This document shows positions 1,070 to 15,075 of a DNA stretch of 17,600 nucleotides, in pieces. A program made the translations under genes and the position numbers. Source of the stretch: Candidatus Auribacterota bacterium (GTDB taxonomy: Bacteria > Auribacterota > UBA6266); assembly GCA_023136205.1 (NCBI GenBank), contig JAGLRQ010000030.1:1-17600 (forward strand), given 5' to 3'. The notes under the pieces were generated by a model. That model saw only the letters and a list, made by a program, of their open reading frames with translations, was not told the DNA's origin and searched no databases. The number at the start of each line of letters is the position of its first letter. Position 1 is the stretch's first letter.

Positions 1070-3319
1070 CTACTCCTCTTCTTCTTCGGTATATGTTATG
1101 GTTAAGAAAGGTCGAAGTGTATAGTAAATAGTACTGGTTCTAAATGTTATCCTATTGGAGTTATCATAACCAGGAGGAGAATTATCAATATCATGTGAAC
1201 ATCTAAGACAAATCTTTGTCCATCCGGTTTTACTTATCCACCCTCGACCAGTAGAATTTAACGTTATTGTCATATCTCCAAGAACCGCTGCTTTCCTTGT
1301 AGCCCCTTCGGGGGGACTATTTAATGTTATATTATTGTAATCAGCTGCAACTAAATATTCAGGGTCGGTTTGTGAGGATTGGGTTATACCGATAGAAACT
1401 GAACCATATAAAAATCTCCCATAAAGATTAAGTGTAACTCCTGTAATATCCGCAGTGTCAGGTAACGCAGAGGTATCAAAGTTTAAATTTGCCCGATTAA
1501 TACAGCTCTGATAATAAATAGTTCCAGGAGACGAAGATGTCTGTTGGCTAGCACCTATCCTTATTGTGTAATTTGTAAAGGTTGCCGTTGCTGCTTCTCT
1601 GGCTACTGTCCAAGGAACATTAATATCATAATCATTATCACAATGTTGTAATCTACCACTGCCAGGATAACTAGGATCCCCGATGGCACAAATAGCATAA
1701 AAAATCATAGTTTCAGGTACAATAGCTGTTTCTTCCGCAGTAAAGCTGTCATCCTGGACAAATTCTTCCGCTGGATTTTTAATCTTAATGTAAAATGTAT
1801 GTTCTTCATTTGGATTCATTGTTACTTTTACATAGAATTCACCGGGAAAAAGTTTAAGAGGGTGGGTATTACCTGATTCATCGGTAACCACTGCTTCTTC
1901 ATCTTCACGTTCTTTTAGAAATTCCTTGCCAAATGCATGGTAGGGTTTATCCTTTGAGTCAGCACCATAAAAATCTGCAGGGATAACATCTTCATTATCC
2001 AACGTCATCTCTTCTATTTCTATATCGGCTAAGAGGTAATCCTTGACCTTAATCTTAATGTAATATTCTTTTTCTCCTGCTTCATCCGTCTCATCAACCT
2101 CAACGGCTTTAATATTCTCGATTTCCGGTTTATCTTCAATTGCCTGGAGAATTGTCCACCAGGCTTCGGTAGCTGCACCATGCCAGACGTTGATTTTATA
2201 ATCGGTTCTGGGTTCCGCGGCCTTAGTTAGCTTTTCTTGACTTAGTTTAGACACTATATCGTCACCTGTTGTTTTTGTATCTTCCAGGGTATAATCAGGT
2301 TCAAAAGAAAATCCTAAAGGAGAACCCTCTCTATATCGGAATAAAAGTCCAGTGGCAGTATTAACAAGGGGGATACCCAAAAAAGTTAAAGAACCATCTC
2401 CCCTAATTATTTTAAAATTAGAAGGAATTGCTAAATTGGCAGTACCTAAAAAAGTTTCATCTCCATCATAAATTATATCAATAGGAACCGATTTATACCC
2501 CAACCCATATCTACCAGTAATAATATCATGATATTCAGAATGAAAAGGTAATCTCATCTTGTCAATGGCATAGCCATCCGGATCTGTTCCAATAAAATTT
2601 TCTACTATCCACAAACAGGCTCTGTCTCTGTTCAGCCTTTCTTGCAAATTCCAAGAAACATGGCTAAAAATAATTTCTGCTGTTTTTCCTGCTACAGGAC
2701 TAAGAAATTTTAATGCTCCGACAGACTTAGAAAAGAAGGTAGCATTTTCATCTATAAGGGGAGGTAACTTCTCCTTTGCTTCTTTGTCTATCATCCAAAC
2801 AGCGCTTGCGTATGGACTGCCTAAATGAGGAGTATCTATAAAAACTACTCTGTATATTTTATTTTGATAACTATCAAATTGAGTTAAAAACGAACGCGTA
2901 ACCAAACCACCCATGCTGTGAGCAACAATGATAACTTTTCTTTCTGATTCAGGATAATCAATTGGGAAACAATTGTCTAATGCCCACTCAACCTTTGGTA
3001 ATAAAACTTGTCTTGCTATATCAGGGATATTGCCATTTCTTGATATGGGACCGGTTTTTCTTATTCCATAGTTAACAAGCGGAAAATATTTCTCTCTTTC
3101 ATCAAGACTTGGATATTTATGTTCACCATCGCTTTTGAAATATATCTGGATACTACTCTTAGCAGTACTCCAAGCATCCCAACTCGATGGCTCTTTGGCA
3201 TTATATCCGTGGACAAAGATAATGGGATATGGGCTGTATTCTTTTGGTTCTTCAGCAAATATTGGTCTGCTGAATATCAAAATGGTTGAGATTAAAAATA
3301 ATACTTTAGCTATTTTCAT
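1070..3319 (-). CDS. secreted multidomain alpha/beta-hydrolase (PGAP1-like / class-2 lipase-like esterase) with a C-terminal beta-sandwich-like domain
   Basis: The ORF-track start at 3322 is TTG. The next codon, ATG (3319..3317), gives the signal peptide MKIAKVLFLISTILIFSRPIFA|EEP.

Catalytic motifs: IIFVHGY; the nucleophile elbow VAHSMGG (Ser codon 2917..2915, verified by hand); FIDTPHLGSP; and, much later, TGDDIV and NVWHGA as candidate Asp and His of the triad.

The middle region has two short modules ending in YIKIK, with the identical 15-mer ttaatcttaatgtaa at 1779..1793 and 2049..2063.

The C-terminal ~200 aa (ANLNFDTSALPDTADITGVTLNLYG) resembles DNRLRE/CBM-type sandwiches; this is a weak call. 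The protein ends in TEEEEE.

The start overlaps the upstream gene by 14 nt (3306..3319). Confidence 0.8.
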   Translation of the reverse strand: MKIAKVLFLISTILIFSRPIFAEEPKEYSPYPIIFVHGYNAKEPSSWDAWSTAKSSIQIYFKSDGEHKYPSLDEREKYFPLVNYGIRKTGPISRNGNIPDIARQVLLPKVEWALDNCFPIDYPESERKVIIVAHSMGGLVTRSFLTQFDSYQNKIYRVVFIDTPHLGSPYASAVWMIDKEAKEKLPPLIDENATFFSKSVGALKFLSPVAGKTAEIIFSHVSWNLQERLNRDRACLWIVENFIGTDPDGYAIDKMRLPFHSEYHDIITGRYGLGYKSVPIDIIYDGDETFLGTANLAIPSNFKIIRGDGSLTFLGIPLVNTATGLLFRYREGSPLGFSFEPDYTLEDTKTTGDDIVSKLSQEKLTKAAEPRTDYKINVWHGAATEAWWTILQAIEDKPEIENIKAVEVDETDEAGEKEYYIKIKVKDYLLADIEIEEMTLDNEDVIPADFYGADSKDKPYHAFGKEFLKEREDEEAVVTDESGNTHPLKLFPGEFYVKVTMNPNEEHTFYIKIKNPAEEFVQDDSFTAEETAIVPETMIFYAICAIGDPSYPGSGRLQHCDNDYDINVPWTVAREAATATFTNYTIRIGASQQTSSSPGTIYYQSCINRANLNFDTSALPDTADITGVTLNLYGRFLYGSVSIGITQSSQTDPEYLVAADYNNITLNSPPEGATRKAAVLGDMTITLNSTGRGWISKTGWTKICLRCSHDIDNSPPGYDNSNRITFRTSTIYYTLRPFLTITYTEEEEE

Positions 3320-3932
3320 CAAGATGCCTTTGTCCTTTTTTATCTCCTAAATATATACCTAATACTAAAGCAACACCTAAAAGGATATATCCTAAAAGTA
3401 GAATAGGTACAACTTTCTCTATTTGAGGAGCTCCGCCCATTGAGGTATAAGTAAAAACATATCCAAACAAAAGCAAAAATGTTAGAGGAGATATGATCAA
3501 TAAGGCGATTACCCCACCTATCAACGCTCTTAGTGCTTTATGAAAGGATTTATTCATAATGCCAAACGAAAAACATATAAATATAACATAGACTAATGGG
3601 GTAAATGGTATACCGAAAAAAGCAATCAGTCCCACTACAGATCCTATAACATATTCTTTACATATTTGGGTTATTAAATAAAAAATTACACCTCCTGCCA
3701 AACCACCCAAAACACCATAAAAGGTTTTTCTCATAGATTTATCAGCTATGCCTAAAGCTAAACCTAAAAAAAGACCAGGGGGTAAAAAAAGAAGATATTG
3801 CTCTATATTTGCAGGAAGAGTCCATGAAACTGCAGGACCAAAACCACTTACATAACCTGTAATAACCCCACTAACCAAACCAAAGACTCCGCCCCAGAGG
3901 GCGTGTTGAAGAATTTTCTTTTTAGTTATCAT
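3306..3932 (-). CDS. small polytopic membrane protein of unknown function, Gly-rich TM helices with an internal repeat
   Basis: 208 aa with an ATG start at 3932..3930. It is almost entirely hydrophobic, with roughly 6 predicted TM segments by eye. There is an internal repeat 63 residues apart: GIADKSMRKTFYGVLGG (res 61-77) and GIMNKSFHKALRALIGG (res 124-140). I recognise no family. Confidence 0.7.
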   Translation of the reverse strand: MITKKKILQHALWGGVFGLVSGVITGYVSGFGPAVSWTLPANIEQYLLFLPPGLFLGLALGIADKSMRKTFYGVLGGLAGGVIFYLITQICKEYVIGSVVGLIAFFGIPFTPLVYVIFICFSFGIMNKSFHKALRALIGGVIALLIISPLTFLLLFGYVFTYTSMGGAPQIEKVVPILLLGYILLGVALVLGIYLGDKKGQRHLDENS

Positions 3933-3947
3933 AAAATTTTCTCTATT

Positions 3948-14045: not shown

Positions 14046-14567
14046 TTATTTCCAGTTATTTATGTCATCCGGCTGATTTCCCGCCGCGAAACCCGCTCCT
14101 GTAACTCCATCAGGCCCGAGTGAATAAATATCAAAAGTGTATACATTGTGAAAAGGCGGCCGTGTAGAAACAAGAGCATCCGTATCAGCCTCATATTCAT
14201 ATGGATTGCCCCAGGGGTCCACAAATTCACTGTCCCCATCACCATCGCTGTTACCAACCCAATCCGTTTTCGGCTCAATATACGGGCCGTAGTATTCATT
14301 AGCAACAGAATCATAAAACCGGTTTGTAAGATATATGTATAAAGCCTCCGAAGCAAGGTCTACAGTAATATAATCAGCGGGATAAAAGCCGGCATCACTT
14401 TTATAAGATTCAATTGCCGTTACAAGATGGGATATCAACGCCTTAGCCTTAACTTTGTTCGCGTTCTTTCTCACGGTTGTAACAGCAGGAATCAAAATAC
14501 CGGCAAGAATCGCGATAATCGCGATAACAGCCATCATCTCTAAAATTGTAAAGCCTTCTTTTTTCAT
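14046..14567 (-). CDS. gspG: GspG-like major pseudopilin, paralogue 2
   Basis: I prefer the start at Met28 of the track ORF. That ATG (14567..14565) lies 1 nt after the upstream TAA (14571..14569) and has GGGGAAGAGG upstream. It gives MKKEG|FTILEMMAVIAIIAILAGILIP. GspG signatures are VDPWGNPYEYEAD, FDIYSLGPDG and the C-terminal DDINNWK. Confidence 0.85.
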   Translation of the reverse strand: MKKEGFTILEMMAVIAIIAILAGILIPAVTTVRKNANKVKAKALISHLVTAIESYKSDAGFYPADYITVDLASEALYIYLTNRFYDSVANEYYGPYIEPKTDWVGNSDGDGDSEFVDPWGNPYEYEADTDALVSTRPPFHNVYTFDIYSLGPDGVTGAGFAAGNQPDDINNWK

Positions 14568-14568
14568 T

Positions 14569-15075
14569 TTACTGGCCTCTTCCCCAATTTGTAATGTTAT
14601 CCGCGGTAGTGCTTCCATCCCTGTCAGGCCCGACAGAATAAATATCATAGGTGGCAGTGTTGTGAGCAGGATTTAACGCGTTAAAGCTATAAGGCACCCC
14701 CCACGGATCTATGATACGGCCTGAAGTATCTCTGTCAATCGCGTAAACATCCACATAGGGCCCACGCCACATAAGCTCGCCGTCCCTGACGTTATATACT
14801 ACACCATAAGTCACGGTTAACAAAGAGCCATTTAGATTTACACCTGTAAGCCAGGTAATTACCCGATCCATATCATTTGTAACCGGCTCATAGCCCATGT
14901 CAGTTTTGTACATTTCAACCGCAAGCTCAATCTTTTTAATGTCCGCCCTTGCTTTATGTATAAGCCCCCTTTTTTCGGCTCGATAAGCAATCGGAATTAT
15001 TATGCCTGCCAATATAACAATAATCCCAATTACAGCAAGCAGTTCTATTAAACTAAAACCCCTAAATTCTCTCAC
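14569..15075 (-). CDS. gspG: GspG-like major pseudopilin, paralogue 1
   Basis: The ORF-track start at 15114 is TTG. The GTG at 15075..15073 is preceded by AAGGTGGAGG with a 5-nt spacer, a strong Shine-Dalgarno sequence. It gives (M)REFRG|FSLIELLAVIGIIVILAGIIIP. GspG signatures are IDPWGVPYSF, YDIYSVGPD and ADNITNWG. Confidence 0.8.
   Translation of the reverse strand: MREFRGFSLIELLAVIGIIVILAGIIIPIAYRAEKRGLIHKARADIKKIELAVEMYKTDMGYEPVTNDMDRVITWLTGVNLNGSLLTVTYGVVYNVRDGELMWRGPYVDVYAIDRDTSGRIIDPWGVPYSFNALNPAHNTATYDIYSVGPDRDGSTTADNITNWGRGQ

Follow-up and report, generated by a model that had tools for sequence, protein, structure and literature searches.

The DNA analysed here is a stretch of 17,600 nucleotides (the window) from contig JAGLRQ010000030.1 of a Candidatus Auribacterota bacterium, in which twelve co-directional minus-strand genes, running from position 15075 to position 1070, encode seven pseudopilins (three of GspG type, G1 to G3, followed by H, I, J and a giant GspK-like protein, K), two pilin-like proteins of the H-X9-DG (DUF1559) family (HX1 and HX2), and a cassette comprising an Ig/LolA protein, a membrane protein and a hydrolase. 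We hold, with moderate confidence, that positions 6765-15075 form the filament-subunit operon of a dispersed type IV filament machine related to type II secretion systems (T2SS), that the large insert of K is displayed by it, and that the cassette is a separate mobile module. Homology assignments come from profile hidden Markov model (HMM) scans of the window proteins with Pfam and NCBIfam/TIGR models against curated cut-offs, and the contiguous sequence examined around the locus amounts to 36 kb (the window plus its flanks on the source contigs). Close homologues are labelled Candidatus Aureabacteria, now Candidatus Auribacterota, of the Planctomycetes-Verrucomicrobia-Chlamydiae (PVC) group, in agreement with the PVC-type organism proposed in a preliminary description of this DNA.

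A conserved operon with a recombining tip protein

Two sister species (L013 and L014), whose rodA is 96-98% identical to that of the window, keep rodA, G-G-G-H-I-J-K and the H-X9-DG pair in the same order; the block from rodA to HX2 is therefore a conserved unit. The pseudopilins and H-X9-DG proteins are 72-94% identical among the three species, while K itself reaches 57-58% between them and its neighbouring genes 72-98%. The divergence of K is concentrated in its middle. A conserved GspK core (residues 1-350 and 1000-1140) surrounds a variable, beta-rich insert of about 650 residues (approximately 350-1000), and relative to the sister species identity falls to 22-62% over residues 350-800 and 900-1000. 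Over the first 350 and the last 140 residues, identity in 50-residue windows is 52-100%, mostly 68-100%; the sole low window of these end regions, residues 151-200, is mosaic, being 92% identical to L014 and 52% to L013.

Synonymous divergence (dS) follows the same partition, at 0.12-0.21 for rodA, 0.15-0.48 for most pilin genes, 0.55-0.63 for the ends of K and 1.3-2.4, or saturation, for its centre. Positive selection was considered as the cause of this divergence and rejected, the ratio of nonsynonymous to synonymous divergence (dN/dS) across the whole of K being 0.13-0.30 and dS being saturated. Saturated dS with low dN/dS in the centre of K argues for allele replacement by recombination and not for faster evolution in place, and the pattern indicates that the insert has probably been exchanged in this manner between close relatives. 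It is also indirect evidence that the insert may be exposed to something variable outside the cell.

Several features suggest that K is a GspK-type protein. The motifs DEASKINLN and ININTA do not vary among the 14 homologues aligned; the model NF037980 (T2SS_GspK) matches with E=4.6e-14 and 52.6 bits, under its 130-bit cut-off; PilX_N scores 25.3 against a cut-off of 25.5, and HHH_3 scores 29 against 27, the C-terminal HHH_3 region also matching ComEA chains in the PDB by profile. Pfam T2SSK gives no match in the K of the window, 18.7 bits in the orthologue P0011, and is annotated in the distant homologues P0021 and P0022. Matches to XcpX are weak, both in sequence (E=1.2e-3) and in fold (5e-3, Foldseek with a low-confidence model). 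The Pfam LTD domain was not found in the window K even at E<=10; it is weak in the sister protein P0012 (E=0.0097) and annotated in distant homologues.

Related proteins are widespread. In a representative library (clusters at 50% identity) 774 K-like proteins were found at E<=1e-3, the best matches being mostly 900-1400 residues long and aligned just to query residues 10-370. Their loci come from Omnitrophota, Aerophobetes, Chlamydiota, Planctomycetota, Verrucomicrobiota, Poribacteria and rumen lineages, and in Planctomycetota, Poribacteria and Omnitrophota they stand within gspE...G-H-I-J-K-PilM/L operons, which ties the family to T2SS-type machines. Of 72 loci in which a genome scan found a K open reading frame (ORF), 22 have a K of at least 900 residues, so the size of K is unusual but not unique. 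Pilin-like genes directly 3' of K occur, among the loci compared, only in the Auribacterota clade. Many K-like proteins of about 1360-1400 residues, with an LTD domain and without recognisable upstream pilin genes, were seen in rumen bacteria (L027, L040, L044, L046) and in L016 and L018; the rumen lineage has two PilB/GspE-like ATPase genes about 8-10 kb 3' of the K start, and in L016 and L018 the K-like gene is solitary after oppositely oriented genes.

Composition of the proposed filament-subunit operon

The window contains 15 long ORFs, all on the minus strand. The intergenic gaps of the twelve-gene run are, in order, 1, 16, 30, 1, 18, 9, 136, 21, 204 and 15 nt, ending in a 14-nt overlap, and the gene order and spacing given in the preliminary description match the ORFs exactly, as they do independent gene calls on public contigs with identical DNA (a 538-kb ENA scaffold and an NCBI contig of the metagenome-assembled genome, MAG), which have the same coordinates. 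The 136-nt gap holds because the start of the 214-residue HX1 is correct, its leader KHA↓YTLMEL being kept in orthologues. The upstream neighbour of the operon is rodA, as had been described (TIGR02210, 411 bits). Features and their coordinates are collected in Table 1.

Table 1. Features of the Auribacterota locus in window coordinates (↓ separates leader residues -1 and +1; aa, amino acids)
Feature	Position	Strand	Evidence
G1, GspG-like major pseudopilin, 168 aa	14569..15075	-	T2SSG 39.9 bits and N_methyl; leader ...FRG↓FSLIE
G2, GspG-like pseudopilin, 173 aa	14046..14567	-	T2SSG 34.4 bits; TIGR01710 E=5e-18
G3, GspG-like pseudopilin, 179 aa	13490..14029	-	T2SSG 29.4 bits; N_methyl 30.9 bits
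H, GspH-like minor pseudopilin, 169 aa	12950..13459	-	Pfam GspH 23.7 bits (cut-off 21) and N_methyl
I, GspI/PilV-like minor pseudopilin, 175 aa	12421..12948	-	N_methyl 26.4 bits; PilV E=1.8e-9
J, GspJ-like minor pseudopilin, 245 aa	11665..12402	-	N_methyl; directly precedes the K gene
K, giant GspK-like tip pseudopilin, 1140 aa	8233..11655	-	NF037980, PilX_N, HHH_3, GspK motifs
HX1, H-X9-DG (DUF1559) pilin-like protein, 214 aa	7452..8096	-	SBP_bac_10/DUF1559 39.2 vs 23.3 bits and N_methyl
HX2, H-X9-D(S/G) pilin-like protein, 221 aa	6765..7430	-	N_methyl 27.8 bits; leader G↓YTLIE
Putative sigma-70-like promoter match TTGACA-N17-TATTTT	6639..6667	-	10/12 positions; ahead of the cassette slot
Sec-exported Ig-repeat protein with C-terminal LolA-like domain, 870 aa	3948..6560	-	Pfam domains; signal peptide from sequence
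Polytopic membrane protein, 208 aa, about 5-6 hydrophobic segments	3306..3932	-	Hydropathy
Sec-exported alpha/beta hydrolase, LCAT/PGAP1-like, 749 aa	1070..3319	-	LCAT 44.3 bits, PGAP1 34.3 bits
REP-associated tyrosine transposase (RAYT) gene 279-959 with 27-nt inverted repeats 262-288 and 993-1019	262..1019	-	Y1_Tnp 55 bits; NF047646 E=5e-15

All three G proteins exceed the Pfam T2SSG cut-off of 21 bits, and at 54-65 bits they do not reach the 88.85 bits of the stricter equivalog model TIGR01710. G1 (TIGR01710 E=1.8e-17) ends in the GspG-type motif YDIYSVGPD...DNITNW, and G2 is 36-44% identical to G1 and G3. The remaining subunits are assigned less sharply: the matches of H to ComGD, Verru_Chthon D and gspH, those of I to gspI, PilV and Verru_Chthon B, and those of J to Verru_Chthon C (E=4.8e-9) and gspJ (E=9.5e-7) all fall under their cut-offs, and the N_methyl matches of I and J are above the Pfam threshold or just under it. 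The pseudopilin calls of the preliminary description hold overall on these scores, T2SSG and GspH being above cut-off and the gspI, gspJ and GspK models below. The leaders are those of a T2SS, as the translations carry class III leaders with Gly-1 and Glu+5 in the G, H, I and J proteins (G↓F(S/T)(L/I)(I/L)E in G1-3, H and I; G↓VTLIE in J), and K (G↓MALIV) has no Glu at +5, as in GspK. HX2 likewise has a class III leader with Glu+5. The dS of G3 to the sister species, at 0.77-0.94, stands apart from the 0.15-0.37 of its paralogues G1 and G2, an excess which suggests that there may be a second recombined segment within the operon.

In this clade K always has behind it a pair of DUF1559/H-X9-DG pilin-like genes, whose products show the organisation of that family (PF07596, TIGR04294), namely an N-terminal prepilin motif, a DUF1559 region and a C-terminal H-X9-DG. 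HX1 has an atypical Ala at -1 of its leader and the motif H-GDGKNYLFV-DG, both kept in L013 and L014. In HX2, which is 85-89% identical to its orthologues in the sister species, SBP_bac_10 (21.5 bits vs 23.3) and TIGR04294 (17.6 vs 19) are sub-threshold, and the motif reads H-X9-DS in the window protein and H-X9-DG in both sister orthologues. The earlier H-X9-DG calls are sustained with that qualification, HX1 lying above the SBP_bac_10 cut-off with a readable motif.

An accessory slot holding a mobile cassette

The preliminary description had treated the pseudopilins, the H-X9-DG pair and the cassette as linked. Synteny in L013 and L014 bears this out for the pseudopilins and the pair, but the three-gene cassette is replaced in both. 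In the corresponding slot L013 has three other exported proteins (174 residues; 1056 residues with a DUF900 alpha/beta hydrolase; 484 residues) with no detectable similarity to the cassette proteins of the window, and the slot of L014 starts with an antitoxin gene and has no orthologous cassette. The TTGACA-N17-TATTTT sequence reported earlier in the 204-nt gap ahead of the cassette is present; promoter-like matches across the region number 46 against 43.4 expected, which is the frequency in shuffled sequence, so this match alone proves nothing. A positionally equivalent TTGACA-N18-TATGCT precedes the different cassette of L013, and sequence similarity between the two stops just after the -10 element.

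The other edge of the slot in the window bears a transposase associated with repetitive extragenic palindromes (REP), flanked by 27-nt inverted repeats (TATATAGGGACAGACACCTATTTAATT), of which none would be expected by chance. The same 27-nt element lies directly after the HX2 stop codon in L013 (9766-9816) and in L014. We take the transposase and its repeats as the putative distal boundary of the variable slot in the window, and the element at the HX2 stop codon of the sister species as its probable edge there. GC content is 0.34-0.37 over the hydrolase and membrane-protein genes, and GC skew is positive over the Ig/LolA gene (4000-6500), unlike in the other minus-strand genes; the lower GC and changed skew across 1000-6500 fit a foreign origin of the cassette.

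Most of the homologues found for the hydrolase belong to Omnitrophota. In four other contexts (L097, L098, L180, L181) a Glucodextran_B/Big_1 protein, a short middle gene and then the hydrolase recur in this order, the Ig/LolA protein being 51-54% identical to its counterparts in L097 and L098, where sequences were compared. The 208-residue membrane protein, which had no family match in the Pfam/NCBIfam scans, is 33% identical to the 220-residue product of the middle gene in L097. In Omnitrophota L098 (5684-16427; a MAG of the same sample series) the cassette stands directly behind K, PilMN and gspD, so that the earlier expectation of finding it near a pseudopilin operon in relatives was realised beside a T2SS operon of another phylum; in the other three contexts no T2SS gene was found within 10 kb. 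When metagenome contigs were scanned with an alignment of the hydrolase, the matches were all generic alpha/beta hydrolases, similar over about 50 residues around the nucleophile, and there was no true cassette among them. On these sequence features the cassette (1070-6560) appears to be a separate, horizontally mobile module, mostly of Omnitrophota, placed in an accessory slot with its own promoter-like site. Elsewhere the middle gene varies, encoding either a membrane protein of about 220 residues or a non-membrane protein of 331-382 residues, and the usual fourth gene, for a protein of about 1325 residues with a carbohydrate-binding module (CBM30) and Big_13, is replaced in the window by the REP element and transposase.

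The family assignments proposed earlier for the two exported proteins proved sound. The Ig/LolA protein contains Big_7, three Glucodextran_B, two Big_1 and one LolA_like domain (33 bits vs 30), and had no match by phmmer against PDB sequences. The hydrolase, which matches LCAT and PGAP1, has a Ser-Asp-His triad (S135, D353, H380) invariant in 37 homologues, in addition to a beta-sandwich domain and a lineage-specific C-terminus. Its structure model is confident over residues 1-537 and the fold is of generic lipase/esterase type; the nearest folds are lipases, esterases, PHB depolymerase and dehalogenases, so that fold and triad are in place and no single substrate class is singled out. Against PDB sequences phmmer gave one weak match (6wpx, BlEst2, E=0.0041).

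A neighbouring MUL2-like operon

The Pfam/NCBIfam scans of the window revealed neither an ATPase nor a platform protein, secretin or prepilin peptidase, exactly as first described. The word orphan, which the preliminary description had also used, does not survive inspection of the flank, where an operon resembling the MUL2 locus of Akkermansia muciniphila (Amuc_1098-1102) starts 4.8 kb downstream from the end of the hydrolase gene, at 3.8 kb beyond the window and on the same strand (L001 14738-20681). It encodes, in order, an Amuc_1102-like protein, a 578-residue PilM-N fusion, an Amuc_1100-like protein, a 535-residue protein with helix-hairpin-helix (HhH) and TSP3 motifs, and a TPR-STN-secretin. 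This is the MUL2 gene order, with matches to PF28178 and PF28028, to PilM_2 (E=1e-46) and to secretin; the 535-residue protein matches HHH_3 (E=6.7e-19) and weakly T2SSK, and neither the Amuc_1102-like nor the Amuc_1100-like protein had a significant PDB match by phmmer. Because genes for a platform (PilM-N) and a pore (secretin) neighbour the pseudopilin operon, the locus is not an orphan. It had been foreseen that a canonical set just outside the window would make the locus simply a split ordinary T2SS; PilM-N and secretin do lie there, which bears out the idea of a split system in part, but no full gspCDEF...LM set occurs within 36 kb. The canonical T2SS complement of GspE, GspF, GspD, GspL/M and GspO with pseudopilins is absent as such, the 36 kb holding only the PilM-N fusion and the secretin, in a separate operon.

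The MUL2-like operon is kept in Auribacterota L011 and L012 (5900-14300), where a second tandem secretin, a Dpy19-like protein, coaE and rho follow. In having coaE and rho behind it, the operon agrees with the published synteny of MUL2 in Akkermansia (PMC13174399). Two transformation-associated genes, dprA and comM, occupy the interval from the cassette to the PilMN-secretin operon (L001 10826-13217), and the same pair is found in L013 after a RelB/ParE toxin-antitoxin pair.

Proposed explanation and alternatives

In the explanation that we favour, a prepilin peptidase, ATPase and platform encoded elsewhere would process and polymerise the G subunits, an I-J-K complex would prime and cap the filament, and the H-X9-DG proteins would be additional filament subunits; the filament would pass through the nearby secretin, so that the K insert could be shown outside the cell as a binding module. 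Exposure of the insert would explain why divergent alleles replace each other between close relatives. That the Ig/LolA protein and the hydrolase, both Sec-exported, serve as cargo or surface partners of the machine is plausible but unproven. Such coupling is favoured by the co-location in Omnitrophota L098 and by the Omnitrophota T2SS-like loci, with class III signal-peptide genes, that have been described upstream of giant adhesion/CBM genes (bioRxiv 10.1101/2023.11.21.568195); it is disfavoured by the replacement of the cassette in the sister species and by the three contexts free of T2SS genes.

Several observations weigh against this explanation. No GspE/PilB ATPase, GspF/PilC or prepilin peptidase is encoded within 36 kb, so that the link to any particular motor is unproven, and since the MUL2-like operon of other Auribacterota (L011, L012) has no adjacent pseudopilins, its proximity here may be incidental. 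Several HMM scores, for I, J, K and HX2, are under curated cut-offs. The AlphaFold model of K is poor (mean predicted local distance difference test score, pLDDT, 52.6) and confident for the GspK core only, so that the carbohydrate-binding-module-like nature of the insert rests on weak Foldseek matches to CBM6; the surface display of K is likewise inferred from its variation pattern alone.

A first alternative makes the pseudopilins, the H-X9-DG pair and the cassette one unit, a novel filament system in which giant tip and H-X9-DG subunits would act with adhesin and lipase to attack another cell on contact or to harvest its lipids. The twelve genes all run in one direction with little space between them, both the Ig/LolA protein and the hydrolase carry the Sec signal peptides that T2SS cargo needs, and the cassette follows directly on the K-PilMN-secretin operon of the Omnitrophota MAG; the L013 slot also encodes exported Ig-like proteins and an alpha/beta hydrolase (DUF900), and T2SS-like loci precede large adhesion/CBM genes in Omnitrophota (bioRxiv 10.1101/2023.11.21.568195). 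We nevertheless regard a single unit as unlikely, given that L013 and L014, with nine pilin genes at 72-94% identity, have no orthologue of the cassette, that the cassette has its own promoter-like site with REP-like repeats and a transposase at the edges, that three of its four other contexts are without T2SS genes within 10 kb, and that the modelled hydrolase gives a generic alpha/beta-hydrolase fold only, which makes a lipid substrate conjectural.

The GspG/H/I/J/K composition is that of a T2SS, and the machine might also be pictured as a classical periplasmic T2SS piston in which an enlarged K fits the tip to its cargo and variation reflects cargo specificity. Giant K proteins do occur in otherwise canonical gspE...K operons (Omnitrophota L035 and L038), and across the three species K allele and slot content both differ. 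The secretin vestibule would, however, seem a tight place for a tip insert of about 70 kDa, proteins exposed to the outside are those that usually show saturated dS with allele replacement, and any co-variation of K and slot would rest on three alleles only, which together make the piston improbable in our view.

Quite improbable, finally, is a competence pseudopilus whose filament, secretin and HhH proteins import DNA for DprA and ComM, in the manner of Thermus and Neisseria pili with a large tip-associated DNA receptor: dprA and comM do lie between the cassette and the PilMN-secretin operon here and in L013, the 535-residue protein has a strong ComEA-type HHH_3 match (E=6.7e-19), K ends in an HHH_3 region matching ComEA chains in the PDB and the best NCBIfam match of H is ComGD (E=1.6e-9), but an HhH-like alpha-domain is normal in GspK and has no known DNA binding there, dprA and comM are widespread, housekeeping-like and not beside the MUL2-like operon in other Auribacterota, neither comEC nor comF was found within 36 kb, and the major subunits are GspG-type and not ComGC/ComP-type at family level, the pilins scoring higher as GspG than as ComGC.

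An extension of the favoured explanation, by which we set no greater store than by the competence pseudopilus, would have K insert and slot exchanged together by recombination, each K allele recognising either what its own slot exports or one particular target surface, with the cassette, shared horizontally between Omnitrophota and Auribacterota, as a T2SS-delivered, lipid-capturing complex used on other cells. If true, this would be a cargo-programmable pseudopilus, comparable in logic to the VgrG-effector cassettes of the type VI secretion system.

Relation to known systems

The gene order, with K directly after J, is that of the gspG-H-I-J-K genes of T2SS such as Xcp of Pseudomonas aeruginosa and Gsp of enterotoxigenic Escherichia coli (ETEC), and the resemblance extends to the C-terminal DPWG...YS.GPD...D.I.NW motif of the GspG-type major subunit and to the GspK signatures of K (no Glu+5, DE..K.NLN, and NINTA/HhH). 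Unlike these systems, the locus has three G paralogues, a K of 1140 residues against about 320, with its variable beta-rich insert, none of C, D, E, F, L and M in the operon, two DUF1559 pilin-like genes after K, and a PilM-N type platform in a separate MUL2-like operon. The Verru_Chthon cassette also comprises four prepilin-type proteins of which the last is very large (protein A, about 1300 residues), and H, I, J and K give weak, best-in-class matches to its D, B, C and A proteins, respectively. The cut-offs are not reached (TIGR02596, 33.2 vs 70; TIGR02598, 21.8 vs 51.4; TIGR02599, 35.9 vs 256.5; TIGR02600, 20 vs 332.3), and that cassette, whose family function is not assigned, belongs to a different phylum.

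As a stand-alone priming and tip operon, apart from pilMNOPQ and pilBCD and with a tip protein of about 1000 residues that varies strongly between strains and acts, in K putatively, as adhesin or receptor, the locus recalls the type IVa minor-pilin operon with PilY1 (fimU-pilVWXY1E) and the ComZ locus of Thermus; it departs from them in having the large module fused into a GspK-like pilin, no match to the PilY1 beta-propeller or the ComZ fold, and GspG-type major subunits. The neighbouring operon shares with MUL2 an Amuc_1102-like protein, PilM, an Amuc_1100-like protein, a fourth protein and a secretin, and differs in the fusion of PilM with a PilN-like segment, in the HhH and TSP3 motifs of the fourth protein, and in its place outside the window. 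Like the Omnitrophota T2SS-like loci, finally, a secretion-type locus is here followed by large exported Ig/CBM-rich proteins, and the cassette follows gspD in L098; unlike the giant genes of those loci (at least 25 kb), the proteins are of 750-870 residues, the host is an Auribacterota, and the operon itself lacks ATPase, platform and secretin.

The families concerned (GspG-K, DUF1559/H-X9-DG, MUL2-like, PGAP1/LCAT) are known, and type IVa pili offer well-known cases of a large tip protein encoded in a minor-pilin operon of its own. In the literature surveyed we found no report of the fixed arrangement of K with the H-X9-DG pair, of a recombining giant K insert, of an accessory slot with a conserved promoter-like site, of an Ig/LolA and hydrolase module common to Omnitrophota and Auribacterota, or of MUL2 linked to GspG-K pseudopilins.

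Significance

The biology of T2SS and type IV filaments is known almost wholly from Proteobacteria. The PVC group and neighbouring candidate phyla encode thousands of DUF1559 "pilins", giant GspK-like proteins and MUL2-type PilM-secretin operons, to which no mutual relationship has been assigned, and a single genome now puts DUF1559 pilins, a giant K and a MUL2-type operon within 20 kb. K would evolve by allele replacement, as a surface receptor would, and a conserved exported Ig/LolA and hydrolase module is found beside T2SS genes in two phyla. The locus supplies testable candidates for the binding targets or secreted cargo of these filaments in bacteria that are uncultured and possibly cell-associated.

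Other features of the region

No RNA family was found in the window (Rfam) and no terminator-like site in the intergenic gaps of the locus, and the structure of the K-HX1 spacer is not unusual (z=0.44). Downstream of the hydrolase gene are the REP-associated tyrosine transposase, dprA, comM and a hydrolase in opposite orientation. Upstream, the source contig carries mutL, miaA, hflX, an amidase, mreBCD, pbp2, a response regulator, an HD-GYP protein and rodA. The distance from mutL and miaA to the MUL2-like operon downstream of them is about 3.5 kb in a distant Auribacterota genome (L012 1-6559) and about 33 kb in the source genome (L007/L001), where the interval takes in the mre/rodA cluster together with the pseudopilin operon and the variable slot. 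The single-domain response regulator and HD-GYP-type phosphodiesterase between pbp2 and rodA (window 16630-17469; L007 8238-9669) belong to an arrangement, pbp2-regulator-HD-GYP-rodA, that is kept in L014 and L015 and stands immediately 5' of the pseudopilin operon; the pair may provide regulation linked to cyclic di-GMP (c-di-GMP).

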